Shown piece by piece: positions 13,279 to 61,870 of a stretch of 64,000 nucleotides of DNA. The position numbers and the translations under genes were made by a program. The notes under the pieces were generated by a model. That model saw only the letters and a list, made by a program, of their open reading frames with translations, ran no database searches and was not told where the DNA came from. Numbering within the stretch: the stretch's first letter is position 1; the number at the start of each line of letters is the position of its first letter. Where the stretch lies: assembly GCA_965116885.1 (NCBI GenBank), contig OZ220741.1, forward strand, positions 1,696,001-1,760,000, given 5' to 3'. The stretch comes from Candidatus Latescibacterota bacterium (GTDB taxonomy: Bacteria; Latescibacterota; UBA2968).

Positions 13279-13820
13279 TGCTCGTCCTCCTTGCGCCAGA
13301 TATGTCCCAGGAGCAATATTACGCCGATACCAGCCGTAAAAATCACGGCTACTTCACCCAGTGTATCGTATCCCCGGTAGCTCGCCAATACCGATGTTAC
13401 AATATTGGGGATTCCCATTTCTTCTCCCGATTTTTCAATATAGCGATTGGCAACGTGTGTGTGAACGGGCGCATTGGGGTCGCCGAACATCGGCATGTCC
13501 AGTGTGCCGTAAATAAGCGCGCTACCCGTAATGAGTACGACGAGTAGTGCCAATGCATTATTTTTTTGAGCAACTTTTTCTGCGCGCGTCGTCAATGATA
13601 ATGTGCCCAGGAGGAGCACGGTTGACACACCGGCTCCGACAGCCGCTTCGGTAAATGCGACATCGACGGCGTCGAGCAATGTAAATACGATAGCCGCGAG
13701 AAAGCTGAATATGCCCATCATCATTGCGGCCATAAACAAATTGTGCATTCGGGATACCGCAATCGCGAGTACGATCATAAAAGACAGCAGGGCGATGTCC
13801 AGTATTTCAGTCATGCTCAT
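13275..13820 (-). CDS. DUF4040/MnhB-related subunit (split-off C-terminal part of MrpA)
   Basis: AVDVAFTEAAVGAG and NIVTSVLASYRGYDTLGE motifs; start moved to MSMTEILD. Confidence 0.88.
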   Translation of the reverse strand: MSMTEILDIALLSFMIVLAIAVSRMHNLFMAAMMMGIFSFLAAIVFTLLDAVDVAFTEAAVGAGVSTVLLLGTLSLTTRAEKVAQKNNALALLVVLITGSALIYGTLDMPMFGDPNAPVHTHVANRYIEKSGEEMGIPNIVTSVLASYRGYDTLGEVAVIFTAGIGVILLLGHIWRKEDEQ

Positions 13821-14139
13821 TTTTCCCTTTGTTGTCGGGGTCGTCAACAAAAGGCTTGAGGCCCGACGTAAATGCCGCTTTGCCTACCGCGTGGGTCGAT
13901 GTGGGGCTGGTGATGAGCAATATCACCAGAATCATCACCAGTTTTACTGTGACCGTTGTCAGACCGCCCTGAAACATCAGCCCCAGCAGGACGAGGCCCG
14001 CCCCCAGTGTGTCGGTAACACCACCGCCGTGCATGCGGCTGTAAAAATCGGGTAAGCGCAAGAGCCCCAGGCCGCCTATCATGCACAGAATACATCCCGG
14101 GATAAGGCAAATCCAGCTCAATATATCGACAATCGTCAT
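13807..14139 (-). CDS. mrpG: Mrp/Mnh antiporter subunit G
   Basis: GLLRLPDFYSRMH, DTLG, TSPTSTHA. Confidence 0.92.
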   Translation of the reverse strand: MTIVDILSWICLIPGCILCMIGGLGLLRLPDFYSRMHGGGVTDTLGAGLVLLGLMFQGGLTTVTVKLVMILVILLITSPTSTHAVGKAAFTSGLKPFVDDPDNKGKNEHD

Positions 14140-14426
14140 GGTGTTTGGGTCCTGTTTTGTTCTTCCGGATCGGCACCCAGGTCATTATAGGTCACAAATT
14201 TTAGAACGGCCAATGTGCCGATAAAGTTGATCAATACATAAATAAGGGCGAGGTCCAGAAAGTCGGGTCGGTCAGTTAAAAATCCGAGTACAGCAATAAA
14301 TAATACGGTTTTGGTGCCAAACATATTTACCGATAGGATGCGATCGTACACAGTTGGCCCCAATAGGGCGCGGCAAAGTGCCAGTGCCATGGTGACCAAT
14401 ATGCCGATCATTGCCGCAATAAACAT
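14136..14426 (-). CDS. mrpF: Mrp/Mnh antiporter subunit F
   Basis: GPTVYDRI and LDLALIYVLINFIGT. Confidence 0.92.
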   Translation of the reverse strand: MFIAAMIGILVTMALALCRALLGPTVYDRILSVNMFGTKTVLFIAVLGFLTDRPDFLDLALIYVLINFIGTLAVLKFVTYNDLGADPEEQNRTQTP

Positions 14427-14427
14427 C

Positions 14428-14907
14428 TCATTGCTCCAGTGCCGTCGTCACGCGGCGGTCCATATCGCCGCTCTGTACATCGTCAGCGGCTTCTTTTGTC
14501 AGGGCATGTACCACAATATCTTCTTCGTCCAGGTCGAGTGACACAGTGCCGGGGGTCAGGGTTATTGAATTGGCAAAAATGACGCGACAGAGATCGGTTT
14601 TTTGCGTTCCCGTTACACGCACGATGCGCGGGGCAATGGGCAATCTGGGATTCAAAATGCGTTTTGCCACGTCGATATTCGCTTTGATAATGGCCCAGGC
14701 CAGCCACGGAATATACACAATCAGGTGTCGGGCCAGATTAATCTGGATCCCTTCTTCATCTACAATAGATAGACGTCCCGCCAGATAAACGACAAAAGCG
14801 CAGGACAATATACCCATGGTGAGGACCAGCGCGTGTTCAAGCGTATAATGTCCAGACCAGAGTAGCCAGAGGATAAATGACAAAACGAAAAAAAAGATGT
14901 ATCGCAT
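14428..14907 (-). CDS. mrpE: Mrp/Mnh antiporter subunit E
   Basis: ANIDVA, ANSITLTPGT, VHAL; start at MRYIFF after GAGGT. Confidence 0.92.
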   Translation of the reverse strand: MRYIFFFVLSFILWLLWSGHYTLEHALVLTMGILSCAFVVYLAGRLSIVDEEGIQINLARHLIVYIPWLAWAIIKANIDVAKRILNPRLPIAPRIVRVTGTQKTDLCRVIFANSITLTPGTVSLDLDEEDIVVHALTKEAADDVQSGDMDRRVTTALEQ

Positions 14908-15135
14908 ATAAACCTCGGATGAAAGCATGGGGGCGGTTCCTATGCCGTCCTCAGAGTCAGCCTACCGAAAAGGCACAAAAAACCCATTCGTTCGCCCGAA
15001 TAGAGTGGATGTGCGAACTATTCTATTTAATATTTTTCAACGCAAAAAATCAAGCGAAATATCTCATCGCGTCTTATCTTGTAGGCGGGTTATTTATTAT
15101 TGAGCAACTGCTTAATTAATAGAAAGGTACAGTCG

Positions 15136-15435
15136 GTGTCAACTATTCTGATCGCATATCTGTTTACAGCACTTATTTTTGGATTTTTTCTCTATTATTT
15201 TGTTTGGCGAAATCGCTATGTGACGCAGATTCGCCTATCTGTTTACAAAGTTGAAGGGCGGGTTGTGAGTATTGAGCGCGTGGTGAGAGAGATTCAGGTG
15301 AATGAGCATCGGGATCTGCTGGCATTAAAACGCATTGAGTGGAAGGTTATTTACAAAGACCGGGATGACAATCTCTGCGAGACCCGCTGCCGCGTTCAAG
15401 GAGGACAACTCGACTGGCATCCTCCGTTGAGGTGA
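15136..15435 (+). CDS. Small hypothetical membrane-anchored protein
   Basis: N-terminal TM helix followed by a soluble beta-rich segment; GTG start assumed; no family recognised. Confidence 0.5.
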   Translation: MSTILIAYLFTALIFGFFLYYFVWRNRYVTQIRLSVYKVEGRVVSIERVVREIQVNEHRDLLALKRIEWKVIYKDRDDNLCETRCRVQGGQLDWHPPLR

Positions 15436-15438
15436 CTG

Positions 15439-15663
15439 TCACACCTTTTCCGCAATGGAGACGGTGTTCTGATCTTTTTGCGCTTTTTTGCGACGTGGGC
15501 ATGTAAAGCAGGCCGAGTCTTCGTCGAGGCTCTGTTCATGGGTTTCCAGGATGTCGCCACAACAACTCTGCTGCTTTTTCTTGTACTGTGCAAATGTCAG
15601 AGCACCTGCCATGAACGCAAATGCTATGATGAGAAAGATCGTCGCTGTCAATATTGTTTCCAT
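15439..15663 (-). CDS. nqrM: NqrM-like (DUF539-type) Na+-NQR maturation protein
   Basis: Directly downstream of apbE; single N-terminal TM helix then Cys cluster SCCG...CFTC. Confidence 0.65.
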   Translation of the reverse strand: METILTATIFLIIAFAFMAGALTFAQYKKKQQSCCGDILETHEQSLDEDSACFTCPRRKKAQKDQNTVSIAEKV

Positions 15664-15673
15664 GTTAGAGTCC

Positions 15674-16678
15674 TTATTTGAGCAATGTCTCAAAATTAGA
15701 CGTCATTTTTTCCACGAATCCATCCCCCTGTCGTACAATCATAAATACGGCGAGATTGTGTTTTTCTGCATAAGCAAATCCCGTTTCCGGTCCCATTACA
15801 TTGATCGCCGTGGCCAGTCCATCGGCGTAGGCGCAGCTTTTGTGTAGTACTGTTACGGAGGCCAGGGCGTGTGTTATCGGTCGTCCGGTGCGCGGGTCGA
15901 TGGTGTGGGAATACCGTATGCCGTCGCGTTCAAAATAGTTGTGGTAATCGCCCGATGTCGCCATGGACATGTTGTTCAGGACGAGTGCTTTTTGTAGTTC
16001 GCCCTGTCCCGCGGGGCTGGCAATGCCAATTCGCCAGAGTTGTCTCAGGTGATTGTGTCCCTTTGTCCGCAGTTCGCCACCGATTTCGATAAAATAGCGA
16101 TTGATGCCCAAACTGTCCAGATAACTCGCTATGCGATCTACGCCAAATCCCTTGGCGATTGCGGATAAGTCGCAATAGATTTCGGGTCGTTCTTTTTTTA
16201 TGGTGGGAACGGATAAGTCAATGTGAATTTTTTCATAGCCGACCAGTGTTCTGCGAGCGTCAATTGAGTCGGGCGACGGCACGCGCTCGGGGATGGCGTT
16301 GGGTCCAAAACCCCACAGGTTGACCAGCGGCCCGATGGTGACGTCAAACGCGCCGTCGGACCAGGTGCTAATTTCATGAGCGATGTGTAAAACATAAGCA
16401 AAGTCCGATGAGACTGCAAACCAGTCTGTTGAAGGCGAGCGGTTGAATTGGGTGATTTCGGAGTTGTCCTGATAAGTGGACATCTGGCGATTGACTTCTT
16501 CCAATCGCGCATTGATTTCTCGGTCCAATACATCCGCGTCAAGAGTTTGGTCTTTTTGGACGATTTTGACCTGAAACGTCGTTCCCATCGTCGAACCGGA
16601 GATCGTTATCATCTGATCCTGACATCCGATAATAGTTGAGATCGAGATTAAAAAGAAGCAACGCCAAATTCTGTCCAT
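15674..16678 (-). CDS. apbE: FAD:protein FMN transferase ApbE (lipoprotein)
   Basis: Lipobox IIGC; TMGT, FDVTIGPLVNLWGFG, DLSAIAKG, ATSGDY, HTIDPRTG, ADGLATA; start could instead be 16711. Confidence 0.95.
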   Translation of the reverse strand: MDRIWRCFFLISISTIIGCQDQMITISGSTMGTTFQVKIVQKDQTLDADVLDREINARLEEVNRQMSTYQDNSEITQFNRSPSTDWFAVSSDFAYVLHIAHEISTWSDGAFDVTIGPLVNLWGFGPNAIPERVPSPDSIDARRTLVGYEKIHIDLSVPTIKKERPEIYCDLSAIAKGFGVDRIASYLDSLGINRYFIEIGGELRTKGHNHLRQLWRIGIASPAGQGELQKALVLNNMSMATSGDYHNYFERDGIRYSHTIDPRTGRPITHALASVTVLHKSCAYADGLATAINVMGPETGFAYAEKHNLAVFMIVRQGDGFVEKMTSNFETLLK

Positions 16679-16890
16679 TACCCCAAATGTCGTGTTGAAA
16701 AAACGCATCACTGTCTCTCTATCTCAGGCATTAGTGATTCTGAATGGGAATTGGGAATCATATAGCGATACTTATATCCTCCCTGTACGCACACTCTACC
16801 TATCGCTTCACTCCAAAATATATTTTAAAATCCGATCATACTGTAAATATAAATAATTTCAATAGTTTATACAAGTATTATTAAACTCAT

Positions 16891-17158
16891 TTGACACGGC
16901 ATTTTAATCTCTTTATATTCTCCAAAATAGCGAATAATCCAACAATTCAATAAGGAGGTTGACTGTGTTGCCCAAACCCGATTCGTAGCTGGGGTGCAAT
17001 AAAGTATTTGGTGGAGATTTTTCGGCATACAGCCTGTGTTTTTATTTTGACAACTAACGCGCACACAAGGAGGAGGGCCATGCCACCAACGAATTTATGC
17101 GGCTCCGATGAGAAGTCATACTGTGAATCACTTTTGATTGGAGCCGCTTTTTATTTTT
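16891..17158 (+). promoter_or_regulatory. Sigma70 promoter plus ~270-nt leader with uORFs and terminator upstream of the CBS gene
   Basis: TTGACA-N17-TATATT (16891-16919); GCGGCTCC...GGAGCCGC-TTTTT hairpin (17099-17152). Confidence 0.6.
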
Positions 17159-17202
17159 CTTGAACCCATGAAATTTTTCCCCTAACTCATGGAGGTATGA
17201 TC

Positions 17203-17646
17203 ATGACCATTCGAGATATTCTCGACCAAAAAGGTCGCCGCGTGATTACGATTGCCCCTGATCACACATTGGATGTGGTACTGGCTACGCTGATTCAAAA
17301 TAGCGTGGGTGCACTTGTCGTGCAGAATCGAACAGGAGATTTGCTCGGTATTATCACTGAGCGCGATCTGATGCGCGAGGTGTATAATGGCGCGGATTTG
17401 CAGGCTGCGCGCGTTGAAGATGTGATGACGCGCGATCTTGTTACAAGCCATCCGGATTCCGATATTGAATATGTGATGGCAGCAATGACCGAGGGGCGAT
17501 TCCGGCACATGCCGATTGTTGATGAGGTGGGTCGTCTCGCTGGCATTGTGTCGATTGGCGATATTGTTAAAGCCAAGTTGGAATCTGCTGAGGAAGAAGT
17601 GATGATATACAAGGATTTTGTCACGCTGGATTGGCGGGCATCGTAA
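17203..17646 (+). CDS. CBS-domain pair protein
   Basis: IRDILDQKG, GIITERD, VEDVMT, FRHMPIV, GIVSIGDIVK; GGAGG RBS. Confidence 0.93.
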   Translation: MTIRDILDQKGRRVITIAPDHTLDVVLATLIQNSVGALVVQNRTGDLLGIITERDLMREVYNGADLQAARVEDVMTRDLVTSHPDSDIEYVMAAMTEGRFRHMPIVDEVGRLAGIVSIGDIVKAKLESAEEEVMIYKDFVTLDWRAS

Positions 17647-17681
17647 CACAGGAGGTCGATGTGTCTGAAGAACTATCCGAC

Positions 17682-17722
17682 AAAAAAGTCTTCGGTTGCT
17701 GGGTGAACCGAAGACTTTTTTT
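17682..17722. terminator. Bidirectional intrinsic terminator (CBS gene / nqrF)
   Basis: AAAAAAGTCTTCGGTT-N8-AACCGAAGACTTTTTT. Confidence 0.85.
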
Positions 17723-17751
17723 ATGTGATTGATTTTAATTTTTAATTCTTA

Positions 17752-19002
17752 TTACCCGCCAAAATCGTCGAATAAGATATTCTCGGGTTCCACACCCATA
17801 TCGTCCAGCATATCCATGCATGCCACTAACATCAGTGGGGGACCGCAGATATAATATTCACAGTCTTCAGGAGCCGGATGATCTTTCAAATATTCATCGT
17901 AGAGTACCTGGTGAATAAATCCGGTCAAGCCCGTCCAGTTGTCTTCCGGCATGGGGTCGGATAATGCCACATGCCATGTAAAGTTGTCGAAATCGCGCTG
18001 CAATCCGTCGAAGTCATCGACGTAGAACATTTCATTCAGGCTGCGCGCACCATACCAGAAGGTTACTTTGCGGTCTGTGCCAATGCGTTTGAATTGATCG
18101 AAGATGTGCGACCGCATCGGCGCCATGCCAGCGCCGCCACCGATGAAGATCATTTCGGCATCGGTTTCTTTGGCAAAGAACTCGCCGTAGGGTCCGGAAA
18201 TGGTTACGTCATCGCCCGGCTTTAGATCAAAAGTCCACGACGACATTTTGCCCGGGGGAATACCCGTTGTGCCCGGCGGGGGGGACGCCACGCGGATGTT
18301 GAGCATGATGATCCCTTTTTCTTCGGGATAATTCGCCATTGAGTACGCGCGAAAGACGGGTTCATCTACTACCGAGACATTGTCCCATACATTGAAATGA
18401 TCCCAGGTGCTTCTAAAGCGGTCTTCCCCATCGGCGGCTTTGATGTCGAAGTCGCGGTAGTCAACGGTGTGGGGTGGGCATTCGATTTGGATAAAACCAC
18501 CGGCGCGGAACCCGACATCTTCTCCTGGCGGCAGTTCGAGAACGAGTTCTTTGATGAATGTGGCGACATTGTAATTCGAGATTACTTTGCAGTCCCATTT
18601 TTTGATGCTAAATACTTCGGCAGGGACTTCGATATCCATATCGCCCTTCACCGTGACCTGGCACGAAAGCCGACACCCTTCCCGCGCTTCTTTGCGGTTG
18701 ATGTGCGATAGTTCGGTGGATAAGATATCGCCGCCGCCTTCGTTGATCGTCACTTTGCACTGCCCACAGGTGCCGCCTCCGCCGCATGCGGAGGATACAA
18801 AAATTCTATTATCGGCCAATGTGTTGAGCAATTTGCTGCCTATGGGAACAGAAACGCTGTGGTCGGGATCGTCGTTGATGGTGATGTGAGCCTGTCCTGC
18901 GGCAACCAGCCGAGATCTGGCAATGAGAATAATCGCTACCAGCATCAGTACAATGGTGGTAAACATCCCTACACCGAGTAAAATTAGCCTTACGTCTTCC
19001 AT
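17752..19002 (-). CDS. nqrF: Na+-translocating NADH:quinone reductase subunit F
   Basis: [12 protein letters not shown] 2Fe-2S motif, [24 protein letters not shown]-terminal DDFGG; start moved to MEDVRL. Confidence 0.97.
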
Positions 19003-19025
19003 ATTATCTCCACGCTTGCCTGGAT

Positions 19026-19637
19026 CTAAAGTTGAATCCCCGAAAAGAGCATAAATGCCATTGCCATTAAGCCCACGGTCATAAACGTAATGCCCAGCCC
19101 GCGCAATGCAGGTGGCACGTTGCTGTATTTCATTTTTTCTCGTATGCCCGCCAGCCCGACAATGGCGAGCGCCCAACCCGTGCCGCTGCCCAGCCCAAAG
19201 ACGACGCTTTCTGAAAAATTAAAGTCGCGTTCGACCATGAGCAGGGAACCGCCTAAGATCGCGCAGTTCACTGTGATCAGAGGCAAGAATATGCCCAGGG
19301 CGTTGTATAGAGAGGGCACGTATTTGTCCAGTACCATTTCCAAAATTTGAATCATCGCGGCGATTACGCCGATATATGTGACCAGGCCCAAAAATGTGAG
19401 ATCTACGTTTGGCAAACCCGCCCAGGCGAGCGCGCCTTCGGTCAGGACATGGGTAAAAATTAAATTGTTGATCGGCACTGTAATTGTCTGCACCACAATC
19501 ACCGCAATGCCCAGGCCCACAGCGGTTGTCACCTGTTTGGAGACAGCGAGATATGTACACATGCCCAGGAAGAAAGCGAGGGCCATATTTTCGACAAAAA
19601 CGGCTTTGACAAATAAGCTGATATAGTGTTCGGCCAT
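19026..19637 (-). CDS. nqrE: Na+-NQR subunit E
   Basis: [12 protein letters not shown] and [11 protein letters not shown]; start moved to MAEHY. Confidence 0.97.
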
Positions 19638-19638
19638 T

Positions 19639-20322
19639 TTAATCCTCTTCCACTTGCTCGGGTTTCCACGCTCGCACAACCCAGATGAAGAACCCGATTA
19701 AGAAAAACGCACTCGGCGATAATAACATCAAGCCGTTGGGCATGTACCAGCCGCCTTCGGTAATGAGTGGCAAAATGTCAACGCCCAGAAGTTTACCCGA
19801 TCCCAAAAGTTCGCGGAAAAACCCCACCACAATTAAGATGGTACTGTAACCCAATCCATTTCCCAGGCCATCTAATAAGCTGTGCGTGGGGGGATTTTTC
19901 ATTGCAAATCCTTCGGCGCGTCCCATGATGATGCAGTTGGTAATGATCAGTCCGACAAAGATCGACAATTGCTTGGATATGTTGTAAGCAAATGCCTGAA
20001 TAGCCTGGTCGGCGATAATCACAAGCGAGGCAATAATGGTCATTTGTACGATGATGCGGACGCTGGACGGGATGTGATTTCTGATCAGGCTTACCGATAT
20101 ATTGGAAAGCGTGATAACAAAAATGACCGCCAAAGACATGACAATTGAGGTTTCCAGCTTTGTGGTCACCGCGAGTGCCGAACACACGCCCAATACCTGA
20201 CGCCCGATGGGGTTGTCATCAAAGATGGGCGTCCATATCAGGCTTTTGGCTTCTTTCGCCGTCAATGACGGTGATGGTGGCACTTCTGGCGCTTGTTCTT
20301 CCCGTTCGATTACTTCAGCCAC
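19639..20322 (-). CDS. nqrD: Na+-NQR subunit D
   Basis: [12 protein letters not shown] and [17 protein letters not shown] start after AAGGAGG. Confidence 0.97.
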
Positions 20323-21112
20323 GAGCACCTCCTTGTTTTAGCGTGTCTAAAAATCGACCGTATCCTTCGTTGCCCAACCAGTACTTGAGCATACTGTCTA
20401 ATCCCCGTGTGGTGATGGTCGCTCCCGATAGACCATCGACCTGGTATTTTGCTTTTTCACTTTTGGGATTTACCTGGCCTTTGATTACGGAAATTGCGAC
20501 ATTGCCAGCATCGTCATAAGCCTGTTTGCCGGGCCACAAGCCCTTCCATCTGGCGTTATCGACCTCGCCACCCAGTCCCGGGGTTTCGCCGTGTTCGTAA
20601 AATGTGATGCCCTGAATGCTTTGCAGGTCATTGCCCAGAGAGACAAAGCCGTAGAGTGTGGACCAGAGACCATAGCCGTAAATGGGCAAGATAATGCGCT
20701 GCAATTTGTCGTTTTCCATCACTTTATAAACGAAGATGTATTTCGGACGGTTGCGAATATTTGCTATGTCTCTATCCGCATCAACAGAACGCCCAAAAGT
20801 GGGGTCGGCGGCCATTTTCTTTAAGTCATACGTATCTACGTCGATACCATCGGGATATTCTTCGTTGTTCAAGATCTGCCCCGTGTCCAGTTCAATAAGC
20901 AGTGGTACGACTTTATTTTCGTAAACGGACTGGACATCGACCGAGGGATCGTATAGCCCACCCGCAATCAGGATATTTTTTACTTTGTCGAGGCGTTTGT
21001 TTTCTTTTTGGATATCGTGTAAGGATACCGCAAATAGTGAGACAAAAAGAGAACAGACCAGACAAAGGGCCACCGCAACAAAGATCGTTTTTTGGATGCT
21101 GTCATTCTGCAC
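20315..21112 (-). CDS. nqrC: Na+-NQR subunit C
   Basis: [24 protein letters not shown] (FMN-Thr motif); GTG start. Confidence 0.96.
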
Positions 21113-22301
21113 GGGCCAGTCTCCTTTGGATATTGCGGTTGATAAAGACGCGGTCAATGATGGGCGCGAATACGTTGGCGAATAATATGGCCAGCATGAT
21201 GCCTTCGGGATAGGCCGGGTTGGTCACGCGGATCAATACTGTCATGACGCCTATCAAAATGCCATAGATCCATTTGCCCTGGCGCGTCATGGCTGCGCTG
21301 ACCGGATCGGTTGCCATGAATACCGTGCCAAATGCAAAGCCGCCGATGACGAAATGCCAGGCTGGAGATACGTTGAGCAGTGGATTGGTGGTGCTGCCGA
21401 TCCAGTTGAAGAATAGTGCAGATACAATCATGCCGATGGTTACACCGGCCATAATTTGCCACGAGCCAACGCGTGTGAGAATTAGAATGCCGGCACCCAG
21501 CAAGCAGCAAAGCGTTGAGGTTTCTCCCATGGATCCCGGAATCAAACCGATAAATGATTCCCACCATGTGTAATCCATCTGGATATGGGTATCGGCATAG
21601 GCCGCGAGTGGGGTTGCCTGACTATATCCATCGACGGCGATCCAGACTGCATCGCCCGAGATTTGCGCGGGATAGGCAAAATAGAGAAATGCGCGGCCCG
21701 TGAGCGCGGGGTTTAAGAAGTTCATTCCCACGCCGCCGAAGATCTCTTTGCCTATTACAACGCCAAAGATGATGCCTATAGCGACCTGCCACAGGGGAAT
21801 CAGGGGCGGCATTGTCAGGGGGAATAGCGTGCTGGTAACGAGAAATCCCTCGTTGATCTCGTGTTTGCGAATGACTGCAAAGATGGCTTCGCATAAGCCG
21901 CCCGCGGCTACGGTTACGAGTTGTACGGGTACAAAGTAAATAGCGCCAATCGCAAGACAACTGAGTACGTCGGAGGGCAGGAAGGACAAGCCCAGTACCT
22001 GGGCGAGCCAGACGTGCCAATCGCCAGTGCCGATTGCGCCGATATTTTGATAGGCCAGGCTGGCTTGCAAACCCGTATTGTACAGGGCAAATAAAATACA
22101 GGGTTGTAGCGAGAGTACGACCGTAATCATCATCCGCTTCAAATCCATGCCGTCGCGCACATGTGCATCGGCCTGGGTAACCTCACCGGGGGTGTAGAGG
22201 AATGTGTCCCCGGCTTCGTAAAACGGATACAGTTTTTCGAGTTTACCGCCTTCTTCAAAGTGCTCTGCCTGTTTGTCCAATAAATCGCGTAGGGGCTTCA
22301 C
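21102..22301 (-). CDS. nqrB: Na+-NQR subunit B
   Basis: [46 protein letters not shown]. Confidence 0.97.
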
Positions 22302-22309
22302 TATCCTTA

Positions 22310-23662
22310 CTATCCTTCCTTTTCAATTTCGGTGAGATTTTCGCGCAAGATAGGCCCAAAATCCATTTTTGACGAACACGAAAATGTGCATAGTGATAGG
22401 TCTTCTTCATCCAATTCCAGAATACCGAGTTTTTCAGCGTCGTCGAGGTCTCGGGTGACGAGTGCCCGAATCAAAAAGTTGGGCAATATGTCCAGCGGCA
22501 TGACGTCGTCGTAATTGCCATGCGGCACGAGTGCGCGATGGCTGCCATTTGTGGAGGTGTTCAATTTGAGGCGTTGGCCGAAGAACATTTTGGACAGTGC
22601 CAGATTTTTGATGGTGAAAAATTCGAATCCCGGCGTGATCCAGCCCAAAAAGGCGCGTTTGTTGCCTTCTTCAAGTGCGGTGATCTGCTGGTGATACCGC
22701 CCCAGGAAGGCGCGTGTTTCGTCTGCTTTGCGCCCGGAGAGGACAGAGCCGCTGATGACCCGGTTTTCGACGTTTTCGAGTTCTCCTTCTACCAGGTCCA
22801 TTATTGAAGCTCCCAGACGGGTGCGGATCAATTTGGGGTGTTTTACGGTGGGACCGCTCAGAGCGACCACGCGCTCGGTCATAATCCGCCCGGTTGTGAA
22901 CAGATGTCCCCAGGCTATGACATCCTGAAGCCCGATGTGCCAGACTGTTTTGTTGCGGTGAACGGGATCTAAGAAGTGGATGTGCGTGCCGACCAATCCG
23001 GCGGGGTGCGGTCCGGTAAATTCTTCGACCTGTATGCGGTCATCATCGATTTCAGGCAGGTCCAATTCGGGGTCTCTACATACAAAAACCGTCCCATCCA
23101 CGAGTTTTGAGACGATTTTCAAGCCCAATGCGAAATTTCTTTCCTGTCCGGCTAATACACGCGCCATGTCCGGAGATAGTGGGTTGGTGTCCATCGCATT
23201 GACAAAAATGGATCGCGCCTCTGTCGCGGGGTCGGCTACTTTGCTAAATGGCCGCGCTCTCAGGGCGGTCCACTGTCCGGATGAGATGAGTTGTTCTTTG
23301 ACTGTTTCCCGGTCGAGATTGTCAATTTCGTCTTCTCGATGGGATTCAAAGGTGACTTCATCGTTGCCTTCCAGGCGGATGACCGTTGATAAGAAGGCGC
23401 GTTTTATTCCCCGGTTTATGGCGATTACCTCGCCTGCGCCGGGTGAGGTGTAAAGAACACCTTCCATTTTTTTGTCGGTGAACAATACATCGCCGAGTTT
23501 GACGCGGTCTCCCACTTGAGCCACGATTGTGGGACGCATGCCCACATAATCTTCACCTGAGAGTGCCACAGTTTGGACTGGTTTGCCATTTTGTACTGTG
23601 GATTGATCGGGGACGCCGCTAATGGGAAGGTCGAGTCCTTGTTTAATTTTTGTCAATGCCAT
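22310..23662 (-). CDS. nqrA: Na+-NQR subunit A
   Basis: [43 protein letters not shown]-terminal IEKEG; start moved to MALTK. Confidence 0.97.
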
Positions 23663-23685
23663 TATGGTCCTCAATTTTTTCCAAT

Positions 23686-23890
23686 AAAAAAAGCAACCAC
23701 AATTGTCAAATGGCCTTAATAAACAAGGGGGAGACAGACAGTGCAGTTGCTGTTTTGCAGGTGCTATGAACACCTACAGGCATTGGAAACAAATCCATCG
23801 TAATCCAGATAAAGAACAGGTGTGTTATTCAAAAATGCAATAGTTTTCTTGTTTCGAGATAAATTTATTATAAGCGTTTTTAATTGTCAA
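23686..23890 (-). promoter_or_regulatory. nqr operon promoter and structured leader with terminator-like hairpin
   Basis: TTGACA-N17-TAAATT (23890-23862); hairpins at 23778-23756 and 23751-23692 followed by a U-tract. Confidence 0.55.
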
Positions 23891-30428: not shown

Positions 30429-30505
30429 AGGACGGCACAGGAGCCGTCCTCTACTCGGACACGATCATTGCCTGTAATGTAGGGGCGGTGCCCCCGTGCC
30501 CGCCC
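30429..30505. mobile_element. Composite REPIN-like element (two inverted GTAG REPs plus conserved spacer)
   Basis: Near-identical to the reverse complement of 56691-56762, including spacer CGGACACGATCATTGC. Confidence 0.75.
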
Positions 30506-30524: not shown

Positions 30525-33248
30525 GTGATGCGCTCTGTATATTTGTCTCTTCTGCTCTGTCTTTTGCCGCTTCAAGTACTGGCAAGTTCGCCGCCCTATC
30601 AAAAGGTCACCGATGTTTCGCTTGCAGGGTCGCTTTCCATCCAGCATTATCGCCTCGCCAATGGGCTTCAGGTTGCGATTGTAGAGGACGATACCCGACC
30701 CGTTGTGACGTGTCAAATTGCCTATCGCGTGGGGTCTTCTCACGAAGCACCCGGCAGGCAGGGCATGGCGCATCTGGTTGAGCACCTGGCGGTGGATCGC
30801 TCATTCTTGGAATCGTTTCACCTTTCGGAGGCACCACATAGCAATGCTGGTACGTCGAAAGATGGTACGAGATACTACGCCACGGTTCCCAAAGCACAGT
30901 TGGACGCTCTGATCGCCAGTTTTGCACGGGGTATGACACAGTTTGATGTTTCTCAGGAAGCATTCGATCTCGAAAAAGAGGTGGTTCTGGCTGAATGGGC
31001 ACGCAGCGCCAATAGTGCGCGTCGGCTTCTGTATAAAAAGCTATATGCCCGCATGTTTGCAGGGCATCCCTATCGGTACGATATTTTGGGTCATCGTGAT
31101 ACGATTAAGACTTTTACCCTGGAGCAAGCAATCGCATTTCACAAGCGTTATTACGTGCCAAACAATGCATGTCTTGTAATTGTCGGCGATGTGAAAGAGG
31201 CTGATATTTTGCCCGTTTTGGTTCAACATTTTGGGAGGATTCCGAAGGACGAGGGGTTTATTCCAGACGATGTTGATACGCTGGATGTCGCATCTGTACC
31301 CCAGGATTCCATTCAATCTACAACTGATCTGCATTCTTCTGTTTGGGGTGTCTGGCATATTCCAACAGATACGCATCCAGACTCTTATCCTTTGTATTTG
31401 TTTGATAAAGCTCTTTTTGATGGTGAATATTCTCTTGCACGCCAAAGACTAATTGGTCCGGGAAAGGTTCTCGGGGTAAATTCCTATTTTCTCAATATGC
31501 GCGATAAAGATCTGTTTTATTATATAGCTGACTTACCTTCGGGTGCGCGTTATGAACCTGTGGTTTCGGCCATGCGACAAACTATTCAAGTAGCTATTGA
31601 TTTTTTTTCTGAAGACCGTCTTTTAGTGGCTAAAAACGAAGCGCGTAAGAGTTTATATCGCATGATAACCAGTCAGTCCCGTCTGGCAAACGCGATCTCT
31701 TTTGGATTCATTCGCACCAACGACCCTGCTTTTGATCTCAAGTGGATGCAGAATCTCGATGGGATTACTGTGGCAGATGTCAAGCGGGTGGTGAAGCAAT
31801 ATCTTTTAGATCAGCCGCCCCGCACCTTTGTCCTGGTCTCATCTCCAAAGCGACCACCATCGCGGCGCGTGTGGCTTTATGTGGGTGTTGTGTGGGTTCT
31901 CGTGGGCCTGGGAGGATACTGGTACTGGCGATGGCGAGTACTTGCGGTTGGATTATTTGCCGTTCTTGGTAGTGTTTCGGTAGCAGAGGCAGAAATCCCC
32001 AATCACAAGCTGTATTACGTGCAGGATACGCGCGTGCCGCAAACGCGGCTTTCAATGAGGTATTATACAGGAGGAGATCTGCAGGAGACAATGGATACGC
32101 GCGGTTTGTCCTTTGCGTTTTTTCGCTTGAATGATCTGGCATTACACGGAGAAGATAAAAAGGAGATGGATCGGCTTGGCGCAGAGTTCTGGTTCAATAT
32201 TTCTGATCGATACGTCACCGTTAACCTGACTGTGTTTAGTGAAAATTTGGATGCGGCCTTAAAACGCCTGAAAACGATGATGGAAGACCTAAAATTTTCT
32301 GAAGAATTGCTGAACAGAGAACGGGCGCGGATTATAGACGATTTTGAGGATTATGTTGATGACCATGAGGTGACAGGAATTTTTTCCTATCACTTATACC
32401 AGGGCAAGTACCGGCGAGAGGGCTCGCGCACAGCACTTGAAAATTTGGTGGCGCAAGACTTGCAACAATTTTGGGATCAAACCCTGCGTGCAAAAGTACT
32501 TTTTTTTACAGTGACTTCCGATCTGAGTAAGTCGGAAATTGAGCGCAGTTTGCGCGTGATGACGGATAACCGACCTCGGGATGGTTTTTCGCCACATCCC
32601 AGACCAAAACGCAAAGAAATCAGGGGTTTGCACGTTCTAATTCATTCCACAACACATTTGGCTGATTCTTATAATTGGATAACCAATGGCTTACCCCGCA
32701 CGCATGAGGATTGGTTTGCACAAACGGTTTTGGTCAATGCACTGGATCGCCTGTTGTTCGTTCGGTTTCGCGACCAGAAGGGCTGGTGTTATTCGACTGG
32801 CGTGAGTATTGACGAAACTAAGTCGCCTCCAATACTGCGTTTTTGGGCTGATCCTCGAGGTGTTTATACTTCTCAGCTTGTTCCCGAGATGTTTCGGTTG
32901 ATTTACCATTGTTTGTCTGAGCCAGATTTTTGGGAGCAGGTGAAGAAAGGTCGTGAAAGGCTCAAGCGGGCATATCATTTGCAACTCGGTCCGCAGACCA
33001 GGCTCAGTCAGCAGGTGCGCTATGACCGCGATGGGGTGCCCGCTCTTTCGCTGGAGGAATACGAGTCGGCTATTGATCGGGTGACGGAAGAGGATATTCG
33101 CCGCGTTTTCAGGCGACTGTTGAACTATCAGGTCAAAAATTTTTTGATGCTTTTTTACGGGGATGTCGATCGCATTAAAGATGCATTGAGGCGAGGGGAT
33201 ATCATGGGCAGGACAACGGTTTTTGATATTCAGACTCTGCGCGAGTAA
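30525..33248 (+). CDS. M16 (insulinase) zinc peptidase, two halves fused through an internal membrane segment
   Basis: LANGL, YRVGS, GMAHLVEH (HxxEH), HPY, YYVPNNA.LVIVGD; second inactive M16-like half after a hydrophobic linker. Confidence 0.85.
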   Translation: MMRSVYLSLLLCLLPLQVLASSPPYQKVTDVSLAGSLSIQHYRLANGLQVAIVEDDTRPVVTCQIAYRVGSSHEAPGRQGMAHLVEHLAVDRSFLESFHLSEAPHSNAGTSKDGTRYYATVPKAQLDALIASFARGMTQFDVSQEAFDLEKEVVLAEWARSANSARRLLYKKLYARMFAGHPYRYDILGHRDTIKTFTLEQAIAFHKRYYVPNNACLVIVGDVKEADILPVLVQHFGRIPKDEGFIPDDVDTLDVASVPQDSIQSTTDLHSSVWGVWHIPTDTHPDSYPLYLFDKALFDGEYSLARQRLIGPGKVLGVNSYFLNMRDKDLFYYIADLPSGARYEPVVSAMRQTIQVAIDFFSEDRLLVAKNEARKSLYRMITSQSRLANAISFGFIRTNDPAFDLKWMQNLDGITVADVKRVVKQYLLDQPPRTFVLVSSPKRPPSRRVWLYVGVVWVLVGLGGYWYWRWRVLAVGLFAVLGSVSVAEAEIPNHKLYYVQDTRVPQTRLSMRYYTGGDLQETMDTRGLSFAFFRLNDLALHGEDKKEMDRLGAEFWFNISDRYVTVNLTVFSENLDAALKRLKTMMEDLKFSEELLNRERARIIDDFEDYVDDHEVTGIFSYHLYQGKYRREGSRTALENLVAQDLQQFWDQTLRAKVLFFTVTSDLSKSEIERSLRVMTDNRPRDGFSPHPRPKRKEIRGLHVLIHSTTHLADSYNWITNGLPRTHEDWFAQTVLVNALDRLLFVRFRDQKGWCYSTGVSIDETKSPPILRFWADPRGVYTSQLVPEMFRLIYHCLSEPDFWEQVKKGRERLKRAYHLQLGPQTRLSQQVRYDRDGVPALSLEEYESAIDRVTEEDIRRVFRRLLNYQVKNFLMLFYGDVDRIKDALRRGDIMGRTTVFDIQTLRE

Positions 33249-33301
33249 TAATTTTCGTCTATACTCTTGACGTTGTTTTTGAAGTTGGCTATGTTTTATA
33301 T

Positions 33302-33378
33302 GCCGCGGGTTGCCTCAGCATTTCTGTTTATTTCCTCCCTCCCGATAAATAGAGTGCTGTTGGCAGCCCGCTTTTTTT
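33302..33378 (+). ncRNA. Candidate sRNA A (long hairpin, C-rich loop UUCCUCCCUCCCG)
   Basis: TTGACG-N17-TATGTT promoter (33267-33295); ~25-bp interrupted stem with plus-strand G.U pairs; T7 tail. Confidence 0.6.
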
Positions 33379-33414
33379 ATTGACAGGGTTATTTTTGGAA
33401 TTTATTTTGATTTT

Positions 33415-33471
33415 GTAGCAGAAGTACAAAGCCTTTGAGGGTGTCGGGAGGGAGCCCTCAAAGGTTTTTTT
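33415..33471 (+). ncRNA. Candidate sRNA B (hairpin, G-rich loop complementary to sRNA A loop)
   Basis: TTGACA-N17-TATTTT promoter (33380-33408); stem 33428-33467; T-tract. Confidence 0.55.
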
Positions 33472-33481
33472 GTTTATAAAT

Positions 33482-33648
33482 AAAAAAGAGGCGCCGGTTG
33501 GGAGGGTATAACCAACGCCTCAAGGGATGTTGCATGGTACTGGGTTAGACGCATTTGTACAGAAAAGAGTTCCAAGAAAGAGTAACGGCGTTGACTCAGC
33601 CGGGGTATAGGAGTCAACGCCGATATTTTTGCGACACGCTTTGTCGCA
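33482..33648 (-). ncRNA. Candidate convergent multi-hairpin RNA C with AUACCC loops
   Basis: Hairpins at 33630-33648, 33586-33622 (12-bp perfect) and 33488-33521 (G.U on minus strand, U6 tail); no clear promoter found. Confidence 0.4.
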
Positions 33649-33778
33649 TATTCTTTTACTTTTAAGGGGTGGAAAGGTTCCCAAAAGGTGTGATTTTTTA
33701 TGCGTTCAAACAAGTTTTAACTTTTTGTTTTATGGTATATATTGTTGAATCTCTAAAAGATGTGACCATGGAGAAGAT

Positions 33779-35287
33779 ATGCTGAATAAACAAATAGAAC
33801 GCTGGGGGCTGTGGCTCGGTCCGATAATTGGGCTGAGTGTCACGGTTTTTGGAGATCTCAAGCCGGGACATCCCGAGGTGACACATACGGCAGGTGTGGC
33901 CTGCTGGATGGCGGTTTGGTGGATGACAGAGGCCGTGCCTTTGGCTGCGACGGCACTGTTGCCCGTGGTGCTGTTTCCCCTGCTGGGTATTATGAGCGGG
34001 CAAGAGGTTGCGCCACTTTATTTGAATCACATTATCTTTTTGTTTGTCGGTGGTTTTATGGTGGCACTGTCCATGCAGCGCTGGAATTTACACCGGCGAA
34101 TTGCCCTTCGCTTGCTGCTTCTTTTTGGGGGGTGTCCCCGGTGTATCCTGACGGGTTTTATGCTGGTAACGGCGTTTTTGTCCATGTGGATTTCCAATAC
34201 GGCGACAACGATGATGATGGTGCCTATTGCGCTTGCAATTGTGGTCAGGATGGAAGAGCAGGGTGTGGCATCTGGTTCTTTTGGCACGGCGGTGTTTCTG
34301 GGGGTGGCTTATGCGGCTTCAATTGGTGGGAGCGCAACGCTTGTAGGCACGCCGACCAATTTGTCTTTTGTGAGGATTTTATCCATTCATTTTGCAGAGG
34401 TTCCCGAGATTTCATTTGCGACGTGGTTTGCGTTTGCTCTGCCTCTGGCATGCGTGATGCTCGTTTGTGCGTGGGGCGCGCTTTGTCTCGTTTTTGGTAT
34501 TCGCGGTCGCGGCGATGATATTGATCTGAGCGTGGTGCGAACGCAATATGCCGAGTTGGGGCCGATGTCGTTTGCAGAGAAGGTCGTGCTGGCCGATTTT
34601 GTGTTGTTGGCGCTGTTGTGGTTGTCGAGACGCCCCGTCCAAATTGGCGATTGGACGCTGCCGGGCTGGTCTCAGTTTTTCGAATCTGGCGGATTGATAA
34701 CCGATGGGTCGGTTGCTATGGCAATGGCTTTGATTTTATTTGTCGTGCCCGCGCGAGATGGTGCGAAATCCAGGGTGATGGATTGGCAAACGGCTGGCAA
34801 TGTGCCCTGGCATATTGTTTTGCTGATTGGCGGTGGATTTGCTCTGGCAAGTGGGTTTAAGGAGTCGGGGTTGTCGCTCTGGTGCGCGCAGCAACTGGAG
34901 GGTATGGGGCGCTTGCATCCTCTATTTTTGGTCGGTGGTTTGTGTGTGATGATGACTTTTTTGACTGAGTTGACTTCCAATACGGCAACGGCAGAGATGT
35001 TTCTTCCGGTTTTGGCGGCGTTGTCTGTGGCGGTGGGTCTCAATCCATTGTTGCTGATGATTCCGGCCACGTTGTCGTGTTCTTGTGCGTTTATGTTGCC
35101 GGTAGCTACGCCGCCCAATGCAATTGTGTTTGGCACGGATAGAATTTCCATGCGCGATATGGCGCGCGTGGGTGTGTGGTTGAATTTGGTTGGGGCGGTG
35201 ATGATTACTGCTGCGATTGCTGTTGTTGGTCGCGTTGTGCTGGGTATTGAACTCGAAGTGATGCCCGATTGGGCGAAGATTCAATAG
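33779..35287 (+). CDS. SLC13/DASS-family Na+:di/tricarboxylate or sulfate symporter
   Basis: WWMTEAVP, SMWISNTAT, TLVGTPTN, TELTSNTAT, FMLPVATPPNAIV. Confidence 0.93.
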   Translation: MLNKQIERWGLWLGPIIGLSVTVFGDLKPGHPEVTHTAGVACWMAVWWMTEAVPLAATALLPVVLFPLLGIMSGQEVAPLYLNHIIFLFVGGFMVALSMQRWNLHRRIALRLLLLFGGCPRCILTGFMLVTAFLSMWISNTATTMMMVPIALAIVVRMEEQGVASGSFGTAVFLGVAYAASIGGSATLVGTPTNLSFVRILSIHFAEVPEISFATWFAFALPLACVMLVCAWGALCLVFGIRGRGDDIDLSVVRTQYAELGPMSFAEKVVLADFVLLALLWLSRRPVQIGDWTLPGWSQFFESGGLITDGSVAMAMALILFVVPARDGAKSRVMDWQTAGNVPWHIVLLIGGGFALASGFKESGLSLWCAQQLEGMGRLHPLFLVGGLCVMMTFLTELTSNTATAEMFLPVLAALSVAVGLNPLLLMIPATLSCSCAFMLPVATPPNAIVFGTDRISMRDMARVGVWLNLVGAVMITAAIAVVGRVVLGIELEVMPDWAKIQ

Positions 35288-48638: not shown

Positions 48639-48656
48639 TAGTTTGAAGTCACCAAT

Positions 48657-48691
48657 AAAAAAAGCCGCCACACAATGTGGCGGCTTTTTTT
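48657..48691. terminator. Bidirectional intrinsic terminator
   Basis: A7-GCCGCCACA-CAA-TGTGGCGGC-T7 between convergent genes. Confidence 0.9.
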
Positions 48692-48968
48692 ATTCCTTAG
48701 AATGCGACTTGTCCCAAATGGGTTTTACTTTTTCGATAACTTCGGCATCGGTCGGACTGGATGCGACGATGTTTGTAAATTCTTCAGCTTCAACCCCAAG
48801 TTCCTCCAGGAACTTTCGGTCAGCTGGTCACGGATAGACGTAGTCACCGATGCAGCCTCGCAACTTGGCGCGGGCTTTATCTGTAATGCGCGGGAGCCAG
48901 GGCATGTCGCCCATGTAAAGCTGACGGCTGCGCGGTCTAAAATCAACAGCGGAACTGAGTTTGTCCAT
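48690..48968 (-). CDS. DUF5069-like small protein with in-frame TGA (candidate selenoprotein, Sec47)
   Basis: Hand translation: MDKLSSAVDFRPRSRQLYMGDMPWLPRITDKARAKLRGCIGDYVYP(TGA)PADRKFLEELGVEAEEFTNIVASSPTDAEVIEKVKPIWDKSHSKE-TAA; AAGGAGG RBS; terminator directly after TAA. Confidence 0.8.
48785..48827 (-). promoter_or_regulatory. Candidate bacterial SECIS hairpin
   Basis: Directly 3' of the UGA: CAGCU/AGCUG and GACC/GGUU lower stems, apical AAGUUCC-UGGA-GGAACUU (48815-48798). Confidence 0.7.
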
Positions 48969-56648: not shown

Positions 56649-56690
56649 GGTTGGTTCCTCGGTTGGTGTATCGTAGGGACAGAGGGTAGC

Positions 56691-56762
56691 GGGCGGGCAC
56701 AGGGGCACCGCCCCTACATGCAATGATCGTGTCCGTGTAGGGGACGGCCCCTGTGCCGTCCC
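56691..56762. mobile_element. Composite REPIN-like element (second copy, opposite orientation)
   Basis: Reverse complement matches 30429-30505. Confidence 0.75.
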
Positions 56763-56941: not shown

Positions 56942-56944
56942 GAG

Positions 56945-59394: not shown

Positions 59395-61825
<2,431 letters not shown>

Positions 61826-61870
61826 GCTGATTATATTGTTTGGGTATTATCACAGAGGAGGAGGCGAGGT

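Follow-up and report, generated by a model that had tools for sequence, protein, structure and literature searches.

Candidate small-RNA genes with complementary C-rich and G-rich loops beside an M16 peptidase gene in Latescibacterota

Do two adjacent hairpins with complementary loops belong to two separate small RNAs, and does one of these RNAs counteract the other? This question is raised by a spacer within a 64-kb stretch of Latescibacterota DNA (the whole stretch analysed is referred to as the window), for which the original prediction had proposed a C-rich, anti-Shine-Dalgarno small RNA (A) and a dedicated sponge RNA (B) encoded side by side. RNA regulation in Latescibacterota is practically unexplored, and a full-text literature search for this phylum together with small RNA returned nothing whose title or abstract opening concerned bacterial sRNAs.

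Units in the spacer between the M16 and DASS genes

Four candidate small-RNA units lie in the 530 bp that separate the M16 peptidase gene from the DASS transporter gene. The boxes, 17-nt promoter spacers, hairpins and T-runs of A and B were located as predicted, and two minus-strand units, C and D, were found that had been missed. The features are listed below by their positions in the window.

33249..33266, plus strand: AT-rich stretch AATAATTTTCGTCTATACTC, a possible UP-like element, abutting the -35 box of A
33267..33295, plus strand: promoter A, with -35 box TTGACG (33267-33272), 17-nt spacer and -10 box TATGTT (33290-33295)
33302..33378, plus strand: small RNA A, about 77 nt, with hairpin 33305-33371 and U7 33372-33378
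33380..33408, plus strand: promoter B, with -35 box TTGACA (33380-33385), 17-nt spacer and -10 box TATTTT (33403-33408)
33415..33471, plus strand: small RNA B, about 57 nt, with hairpin about 33429-33467 and U7 33465-33471
33482..33538, minus strand: small RNA C, about 57 nt, with hairpin 33488-33521 and U6 33482-33487, convergent with B
33545..33573, minus strand: predicted ECF-sigma-type promoter C, with -35 block GGAAC (33569-33573), 17 nt and -10 block CGTCTAA (33545-33551)
33574..33648 (about), minus strand: small RNA D, about 75 nt, with hairpin E 33630-33648, hairpin D 33587-33622 and U-rich tail 33574-33586
33655..33681, minus strand: candidate ECF-type promoter D, with -35 block GGAAC (33677-33681), 16 nt and -10 block AGTAAA (33655-33660)

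By sequence, A and B have sigma-70-type promoters, the activity of which is predicted. A promoter scan found 4 sites in the interval 32800-34200, versus 1.5 +/- 1.1 in shuffled sequences, and gave promoters A and B 9 and 10 of 12 matches, respectively. The 5' end of A was placed from its -10 box, and that of C is also a predicted one. In A, B and C, the hairpin is directly followed by a U-run (U7, U7 and U6, respectively); all three had been omitted by the terminator scan, as their loops are above its 8-nt limit. The scan flagged a plus-strand terminator at 33630-33648; for hairpin D, a plus-strand reading was rejected because of the G.U pairs in L007 and L014.

A folds at -38.1 kcal/mol (z = -8.05, with 0 of 200 shuffles as good) and B at -24.9 kcal/mol (z = -3.94, with 1 of 200 as good), and both fold worse on the minus strand, at -25.2 and -19.4 kcal/mol, respectively. 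The values for C and D are -19.4 kcal/mol (z = -5.75) and -30.0 kcal/mol (z = -5.02). The loop of A (33333-33343) reads UCCUCCCUCCC and contains an invariant 8-mer, UCCCUCCC, while that of B (33443-33453) reads GUCGGGAGGGA, in which UCGGGAGGGA is invariant. The loop of C (33500-33509) is AUACCCUCCC, which includes CCCUCCC, and the conserved 5' part of this RNA is UACCAUGCAACAUCCC; hairpin D carries the C-rich loop CUAUACCCCGGCU, with ACCCCGG. The heptamer CCCTCCC is rarer than expected in the window (4 copies on both strands versus 6.55), and three of the four copies are in three hairpin loops within 170 bp.

None of the units matches an Rfam family. At gathering scores, Rfam 15 gave no match over the whole window, and at permissive E-values it gave nothing credible between positions 33150 and 33850, where the best match, FasX, scored 20.6 bits (E = 0.48; its gathering score is 100). 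Covariance models of A, B and C, when run over 210,659 bases, found no copies besides the known units. The A model also matches C weakly (about 12.5-21.5 bits), a score too low to call A and C paralogues. Two open reading frames were rejected as non-coding. For the one in A (ATG at 33300, 27 codons), the ATG of the relatives lies elsewhere and in another frame; the one in C, starting from a conserved AUG (MQHPLRRWLYPPN...), crosses the terminator, has non-synonymous loop variants and differs in length (25 codons in the window, 77 in L003).

Conservation of the units in related genomes

Related loci were gathered by a search with the M16 neighbour, yielding 16 relatives and, together with the window, 17 genomes. 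A and B lie directly downstream of the same M16 peptidase gene in all 16 related Latescibacterota genomes, and L016 still carries both although its M16 protein is 41% identical. The -35 and -10 hexamers of both promoters, with the exact 17-nt spacer, are kept in 17/17 genomes including L016, in which the stems are wholly different and the -35 box, -10 box, loops and U-runs are retained. Promoter A keeps CTTGAC without exception, and its -10 box, TATGTT in 16 of the 17 genomes, differs only in L016 (TATTAT); in promoter B, TTGACA is present in all 17 and the -10 box reads TATTTT, TATCTT or TATTAT. The AT-rich stretch stays beside the -35 box of A despite 90-106 nt inserted after the M16 stop codon in L002 and L004, and the spacing from A to B is fixed at 99-110 nt in every genome. 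Identity over A and B (0.72-0.98) exceeds a synonymous-site proxy of the adjacent gene (0.56-0.87) in all 14 comparable genomes; the proxy was protein-guided, with L007 and L016 left out as they offered no frame.

Compensatory changes were seen in 7 of the 26 pairs of the A stem and in 5 of the 13 pairs of the B stem, with covariation scores matched by 0 of 500 shuffles for either RNA, and slid controls had 0-2 compensatory pairs. The covariance models of A and B matched all 17 genomes, at 61-112 and 52-91 bits, respectively. Many conserved G.U pairs in A and B would become A.C mismatches if the opposite strand were read, and both units are therefore on the plus strand, where they also fold better, as had been proposed. 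A minus-strand B, which would make three C-rich loops, was rejected since the T-run is kept on the plus side only and since this reading would turn a U.G pair of L001 and L005 into C.A. These results indicate that: A and B are selected plus-strand small-RNA genes rather than chance hairpins, given the near-invariant boxes and loops and the compensatory stem substitutions; the stems of the two RNAs are unrelated, only the loops matching; and the original description of two separate protein-free units of about 77 and 57 nt is sound, with promoters, loops and terminators conserved and stems co-varying in all 17 genomes. We are fairly confident that the units are real small-RNA genes.

One could argue that these elements are terminators or insulators only, with incidental promoter-like boxes, so that A would end the M16 mRNA, while B and C would be a face-to-face pair separating converging transcription. 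In 13 of the 17 genomes, the M16 stop codon is only 17-30 nt from the -35 box of A with no further terminator between this stop codon and hairpin A, and hairpin A very probably ends the M16 mRNA as well. B and C do stand face to face, separated by about 10 nt over a palindromic AT stretch, and the A covariance model weakly matches an ordinary terminator at 48654-48702. However, terminators have no need for invariant loops, nor for -35 and -10 boxes at an exact spacing in every genome, even in L016. Moreover, B is conserved in L002, L003, L005 and L010, in which C is missing or lies over 1 kb away, and it has no upstream gene to terminate as the U7 of A precedes it. It is hardly likely, then, that the elements serve for termination alone. 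The proviso in the original prediction that hairpin A might be just the M16 terminator thus holds in part: a terminator role is very probable, but its being the only role is opposed by the invariant promoter and loop.

C is present in 14 of the 17 genomes, and the sequence of D is nearly invariant in 12 genomes. Stem positions in C switch between U.G and U-A, which fits the minus strand only, as do the G.U pairs of D in L007 and L014; hairpin E gives no strand information. The window's D has a weak U-rich tail, and a proper U-run follows hairpin D in L011 and L014. Both blocks of promoter C are invariant in 13 of the 14 genomes bearing C, with a variable spacer sequence, and they travel with C when it is apart from D (L011) or when D is missing (L006). 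The motif, GGAAC-N17-CGTCTAA, fits the ECF consensus as given in PMC3397946, and promoter C is predicted to be of the ECF-sigma-dependent type. Promoter D, GGAAC-N16/17-(A/C)GTA, in which the -10 block is CGTAAA or CGTATG after 17 nt in L011-L014, is a poorer match to this consensus and may be assigned to the same type with more reserve. A sigma-54 reading of TTGGAAC upstream of C was rejected on inspection against the sigma-54 consensus, as there is no GC at -12. On the best explanation, the spacer is a small-RNA island of four independent non-coding genes.

The surroundings of B also bear on the possibility that it is a leader or attenuator acting in cis on a gene downstream, with A and C pairing to its loop and thereby controlling terminator read-through. 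In 4 of the 17 genomes (L002, L003, L005 and L010), the strand of B does carry a gene of the sigma-70 family (RpoS/RpoD-like) that starts about 110 nt downstream of B. In the window and the 12 other genomes, however, B has no plus-strand follower, the converging C coming next, and B is equally conserved there, which makes the leader reading very improbable.

Loop complementarity and the possible role of B

A repeat search recovered arms 33335-33345 (CTCCCTCCCGA, A side) and 33444-33454 (TCGGGAGGGAG, B side) as 11 nt with 100% complementarity, exactly the loop match that had been noticed. The loops themselves are smaller than supposed, as closing stem pairs take up the G (33344) and A at the end of the A arm and the U and G that flank the loop in B; this leaves 8 nt, UCCCUCCC with GGGAGGGA, as the complementary core that is strictly unpaired. 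Perfect complementarity between A and B extends over 8-12 nt in 17/17 genomes and over 10-12 nt in 16 of these, and that between C and B over 7-10 nt in all 14 genomes having C. Five genomes have UCCCUCCCGA as the loop of C, a 10-mer that A carries too. As C shares the seed of A and matches the B loop, B is not obviously dedicated to A. Within the 16 loci, UCGGGAGGGA is confined to A (as its complement), B and C.

Over the whole window and both strands, the best non-self partner of loop A is the B loop (-24.7 kcal/mol, against a background of -5.65 +/- 3.65 kcal/mol, n = 25588). A second site, at 62236-62270, pairs with loop A nearly as well (-24.3 kcal/mol). Cofolding of full-length A and B by RNAcofold gained only -1.7 kcal/mol, a small value due to the fact that this method leaves out kissing loops; duplexfold of the full-length RNAs is no more informative on such contacts. 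Folding also shrinks the loop of B to a hexaloop, GGGAGG, so that fewer loop bases may be free.

It had been anticipated that the loops would be conserved and would co-vary in relatives. They are conserved and complementary in all 17 genomes, but among the 12 proposed intermolecular A:B pairs (97.5% paired), 9 are constant and a compensatory change is seen in none. The edge pair that changes on both sides in L011 and L014 (G-C to C.U or C.C) is broken, and a G-to-A change in A of L011, attributable to A's own stem (U.G to U-A), cuts the A:B pairing to 8 nt. Since the loops are invariant, covariation speaks neither for nor against A:B pairing. A Shine-Dalgarno mimic and an anti-Shine-Dalgarno mimic are complementary to each other by construction.

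The best reading of these data, which as a whole we hold to be about as likely as not, is that A and C, and perhaps D, are anti-Shine-Dalgarno-like regulators with B as a G-rich decoy for them. A, from its sigma-70-type promoter, and C, from its ECF-type promoter, would each have an open hairpin loop exposing the seed (U)CCCUCCC(G)A, and D would expose a related C-rich loop. These loops would act in trans by pairing with G-rich Shine-Dalgarno regions of mRNAs, thereby blocking translation in the manner of RoxS/RsaE and of the alphaproteobacterial CCUCCUCCC RNAs. B, from its own sigma-70-type promoter, would expose the exact complement, UCGGGAGGGA, and most likely titrates A and C through loop-loop contact, as a decoy or sponge that sets an activity threshold, while hairpin A would double as the terminator of the M16 mRNA. 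The parts of this reading differ in strength: the C-rich loops are probably base-pairing seeds, and for B to work through pairing with A and C we see a chance slightly short of even.

A more elaborate version, which we advance tentatively and consider possible rather than probable, takes the locus as an RNA-only island in which sibling seed RNAs under different sigma factors share one G-rich anti-sRNA, B, with a stoichiometric threshold set by kissing. A would then depend on a housekeeping-type sigma factor and C and D on an ECF stress sigma factor, and repression at ribosome-binding sites would turn on once stress-induced C, plus A, exceeds B. In the literature searched, we found no linked sRNA/anti-sRNA module conserved over a whole uncultured lineage.

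Alternatively, A, B, C and D might be independent trans regulators with mRNA targets of their own, A, C and D binding G-rich ribosome-binding sites and B binding C-rich mRNA, for example by opening structures that hide ribosome-binding sites, so that the A:B match would be a by-product of Shine-Dalgarno imitation. This is consistent with loops that are invariant rather than co-varying, with a core (CCUCC/GGAGG) that is the Shine-Dalgarno pair itself, with the loss of the edge pair in L011 and L014 without sign of counter-selection, and with C and D shifting away from B in several genomes. However, the match outreaches the Shine-Dalgarno core to UC/GA and is 10-12 nt long in 16 of the 17 genomes, the A-B spacing is constant in all of them, and B has no conserved unpaired region other than its loop. 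We regard this independence as doubtful.

GGA in hairpin loops is the recognition element of CsrA/RsmE, and known CsrA sponges carry many GGA hairpins. As the loop GUCGGGAGGGA has two GGA triplets, B might instead be a protein decoy that sequesters the ribosome or an RNA-binding protein, whether CsrA-like or not. But B has a single hairpin in place of the many of the CsrB/RsmZ type, and the exact fit of its loop to those of two RNAs encoded nearby would go unexplained, making a protein decoy unlikely.

Targets in mRNA were also sought in the window. This clade does make use of Shine-Dalgarno sequences: two genes have AGGAGG and AAGGAGG upstream of them. The target prediction suggested for loop A was unsuccessful: a duplex scan of the 64 kb, with 37 putative gene starts inspected, gave no convincing mRNA target. 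GGGAGGG has only one further copy on a coding strand in the 64 kb, away from gene starts. The complement of the 5' part of C had 3 matches (with up to 3 mismatches) versus 2.7 expected, one being C itself. At position 56945, the ribosome-binding site of a carbamoyltransferase gene, CGGGAGG, is a mere 7-nt match.

Comparison with known systems

In plasmid kissing-loop control (RNAI/RNAII, CopA/CopT), the two strands of one DNA segment each yield one of the RNAs, which are complementary over their whole length. The first contact proposed here would likewise be between complementary hairpin loops, but A and B are adjacent and on the same strand, the loops alone match and the stems are unrelated, so that they are no cis-antisense pair. 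The sigma-E-dependent sRNAs MicA, RybB and MicL are enterobacterial. C and D resemble them in their two-block promoters of the putative ECF type (GGAAC with CGTC or CGTA), and C does so also in having a conserved single-stranded 5' part followed by a terminator hairpin; unlike these RNAs, C and D show no homology, with no Rfam match.

A second likeness is to the Cuckoo family of Alphaproteobacteria (RSs0680/CcsR, C14, A6), with its loop motif CCUCCUCCC (PMC4615179). The C/U loop motif here, CCUCCCUCCC or its invariant core UCCCUCCC, is nearly identical and also anti-Shine-Dalgarno-like, although the Cuckoo 9-mer itself is absent from loop A (UCCUCCCUCCC) and loop C (AUACCCUCCC). As in that family, the stems vary by compensatory change and the loop motif alone is conserved. 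Cuckoo transcripts, however, belong to another phylum and carry 2-4 adjacent motif hairpins, whereas each unit here has one hairpin with its own promoter and U-run; the portions of PMC4615179 drawn upon describe no G-rich partner.

The closest logic is that of C-rich sRNAs with a G-rich sponge in Firmicutes, namely RoxS/FsrA with RosA in Bacillus subtilis and RsaE/RsaG/RsaD with RsaI in Staphylococcus aureus, in which the C-rich regions pair with ribosome-binding sites (PMC8216469). Here too, C-rich unpaired regions are complementary to the G-rich unpaired region of a separate RNA, and sibling RNAs appear to be under different regulators; no homology to RoxS/RsaE, RosA or RsaI was found in sequence or structure, as judged from Rfam. 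RosA, as described there, is about 229 nt long with three G-rich regions, whereas B has just one G-rich loop in 57 nt and, unlike RosA, is encoded directly beside its candidate partners, at a fixed spacing and in another phylum. The locus offers four conserved and clearly delimited candidates, for which ends and strands as well as seeds and promoter classes are predicted, and even if B does not titrate, these are clean new sRNA families for covariance-model annotation of these genomes. If B does titrate A and C, the ECF-type promoters would tie the module to an envelope-stress-like response, and a phylum far from the Firmicutes would have evolved the logic of a C-rich sRNA and a G-rich sponge on its own, as a minimal version in which two short hairpins are physically linked.

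Units A and B and their surroundings

The spacer between an M16 peptidase gene and a DASS symporter gene had been described as carrying two tandem promoter-hairpin-terminator units, A and B. This description was borne out, with all elements at the predicted positions in the sequence, and the 11-nt loop arms (33335-33345 and 33444-33454) were indeed 100% complementary. However, while A and B were confirmed, the two-unit picture had missed two minus-strand units, C and D. The spacer thus contains four candidate small-RNA genes, of which A, C and D have C-rich loops and B a G-rich one.

Features of the spacer and its neighbours (window positions)
30525-33248: M16 peptidase, 907 aa, upstream neighbour
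33267-33272, plus: unit A -35 box TTGACG, then a 17-nt spacer
33290-33295, plus: unit A -10 box TATGTT
33305-33371, plus: unit A hairpin, -38.1 kcal/mol, z = -8.05
33333-33343, plus: unit A loop UCCUCCCUCCC, 11 nt; then U7
33380-33385, plus: unit B -35 box TTGACA, then a 17-nt spacer
33403-33408, plus: unit B -10 box TATTTT
about 33429-33467, plus: unit B hairpin, -24.9 kcal/mol, z = -3.94
33443-33453, plus: unit B loop GUCGGGAGGGA; then U7
33488-33521, minus: unit C hairpin, loop AUACCCUCCC, then U6; -19.4 kcal/mol, z = -5.75
33587-33622, minus: hairpin D of unit D, loop CUAUACCCCGGCU; the unit also has a small hairpin E
33779-35287: DASS sodium:anion symporter, downstream neighbour

None of 200 shuffles folded as well as hairpin A, and one of 200 as well as hairpin B. 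Both promoters appeared in the promoter-scan output (four sites per 1.4 kb versus 1.5 +/- 1.1 in shuffles). CCCTCCC was scarce on the two strands of the window (four occurrences versus 6.55 expected), and three of the four lay in hairpin loops, all inside a 170-bp stretch. The promoter spacers of A and B (33273-33289 and 33386-33402, plus strand), themselves well conserved, both contain TTTTTG(G)AA, which may be a common operator of one regulator.

A 19-mer, CTCGGACACGATCATTGCC, lies just upstream of the M16 gene (30454-30472, plus strand), and a second copy with two mismatches (56719-56737, minus strand; 0.01 matches expected by chance) sits at the 5' end of a fused glycyl-tRNA synthetase gene, a single 1018-aa ORF (53667-56723, minus strand) with both alpha and beta subunit domains. 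One possibility is a short element, repeated or regulatory, of GC-rich leaders. The long minus-strand run at 7604-23773, with Mrp/Mbh-type antiporter subunits, ApbE and an NQR/RNF-type six-gene cluster, is ordinary energy-metabolism context.

Conservation of A and B and the role of hairpin A

Following relatives of the M16 protein gave 16 Candidatus Latescibacterota loci (labelled L001, L002 and so on) and two unrelated loci. Units A and B were found in all 16 Latescibacterota loci, the A motif 89-198 nt past the M16 stop and the B motif 99-110 nt from the A motif. In the A promoter, CTTGAC and the -10 TAT were invariant, as were TTGACA and TAT in that of B, both with 17-nt spacing; the invariant loop cores were UCCCUCCC (A) and UCGGGAGGGA (B). 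Compensatory double changes occurred in 7 of 26 pairs of the A stem (97.7% of cells paired) and 5 of 13 of the B stem (96.6%); neither covariation score was reached by any of 500 shuffles, and slid controls gave 0-2 compensatory pairs. In L016 (M16 41% identity) the stems were wholly different, with promoter boxes, loops and U-runs kept and both RNAs still folding. Identity across the A-B region was 0.72-0.98, versus 0.56-0.87 at M16 third codon positions (identical residues, last 300 codons), and was higher in 14 of 14 genomes, L007 and L016 being left out because no reading frame was found. The predicted plus-strand placement held: the many conserved G.U pairs and a U-run on the plus side only fix the strand of both units.

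A rival reading takes the units as pure terminators or insulators, with hairpin A acting only as the M16 terminator. In 13 of the 17 genomes (the 16 plus the window), 17-30 nt without an intervening hairpin separate the M16 stop from the A -35 box; M16 transcripts therefore very probably end at hairpin A, judging from this arrangement, and A resembles a 3'-end sRNA having its own promoter. However, the promoter and loop are invariant and the AT-rich stretch before the promoter is conserved even with 90-106 nt inserted (L002, L004), and we therefore argue that termination is not the sole role of A.

Minus-strand units C and D

Unit C, found in 14 of 17 genomes (the flank was too short to judge in L009 and L016, and L005 is rearranged), converges on B, ten bases past its U-run. 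U.G/U-A alternation at three stem positions fits the minus strand only. Upstream lies GGAAC-N17-CGTCTAA, both blocks invariant in 13 of 14 genomes with a variable spacer, and the motif accompanies C both in L011, with D 170 nt off, and in L006, which lacks D. By its sequence, this putative promoter matches the ECF-sigma consensus, for which passages of PMC3397946 give GGAACTT for E. coli sigma-E and name CGTC as frequent in ECF -10 elements. The convergent U-runs of B and C (33466-33487) form a 14-nt AT palindrome, and read-through of either unit would yield RNA antisense to the other. In L014 (6394-6522, minus strand), D has a proper U8 terminator with hairpin C directly after it; this C lacks the ECF-type promoter and the conserved 5' part, and may be non-autonomous.

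Unit D lies further upstream than C, behind a GGAAC-N16/17-(A/C)GTA motif. Across 12 genomes its sequence hardly changes, and its G.U pairs fit the minus strand. MicA, RybB and MicL are sigma-E-dependent, and we infer from the motif that C and D may likewise be under ECF sigma control.

Possible loop pairing and a possible decoy

Perfect complementarity spanned 8-12 nt for A:B in all 17 genomes and 7-10 nt for C:B in 14 of 14; the C loop was UCCCUCCCGA in five genomes, with an identical 10-mer in A. Self-pairing aside, loop A was predicted to pair best, within the window, with the B loop (-24.7 kcal/mol). The stretch GUGGAGGGAGGAGAAG at 62236-62270 (plus strand), in a YceI-like ORF (61610-62530), came close at -24.3 kcal/mol and could, on predicted energies, be a coding-region target of A or a chance match. 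In folding, the B loop tended to shrink to the hexaloop GGGAGG, a predicted size that still suits a kissing contact.

The original prediction had looked to conservation and co-variation of the loops. They were conserved, but none of the 12 proposed A:B pairs (97.5% paired) showed compensatory change: nine are unchanged throughout, two change on one side and one departs through unpaired cells alone. In L011, a G-to-A change turned U.G into U-A in A's own closing pair, losing one A:B pair. This invariance speaks neither for pairing nor against it. A rival view is that the units regulate independently and that their loops match only because they mimic Shine-Dalgarno pairing.

This clade makes use of Shine-Dalgarno sequences (in the window, one stands at 11 of the 37 crude gene starts), and the C-rich loops of A and C, perhaps D, would pair with G-rich ribosome-binding sites. 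An aspartate/ornithine carbamoyltransferase gene (56945-57871, plus strand) has a T9 run and the ribosome-binding site CGGGAGG upstream (56915-56947); this site matches the A/C seed, the C-rich motif around CCCUCCC, over 7 nt.

B could also be a protein decoy, or the leader of a downstream sigma gene: in 4 of 17 genomes (L002, L003, L005, L010), B and C are separated by a gene of the sigma-70 family, RpoS/RpoD-like. It is absent from the window. In L005 (6059-7089) its product has 280 aa with regions 2 and 4, and in L003 two ORFs, of 135 and 158 aa, take the place of the single one; its best NCBIfam match, rpoS_proteo, scored 225.9 bits, below the 378.7 cut-off. A 58-aa ORF follows, and the two have their own terminator. 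Since B keeps just one conserved unpaired stretch, and this complements the A/C seed exactly, B is best read as a putative decoy for A and C.

Comparison with known systems

No Rfam family matched the units. Literature listings on RoxS/RosA sponges, CCUCCUCCC RNAs, CCCUCCC sRNAs and anti-sRNA kissing, together with the passages of PMC8216469 and PMC4615179 cited below, brought up no account of this arrangement. By its listing the CCCUCCC paper looked unrelated, the anti-sRNA one was a review, and titles and abstract openings for Latescibacter* 'small RNA' mention nothing on bacterial sRNAs. The mechanism class is already known; what is new is the set of families, their phylum, a candidate sponge reduced to one loop, and its linkage side by side at a fixed distance. 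As a precedent, passages of PMC8216469 describe RosA, which sponges the C-rich RoxS as well as FsrA, and RsaI as a similar case. With their conserved loops on changing stems, A and B are like the alphaproteobacterial CCUCCUCCC 'cuckoo' RNAs, whose loops, in the text seen of PMC4615179, are conserved while the stems vary freely.
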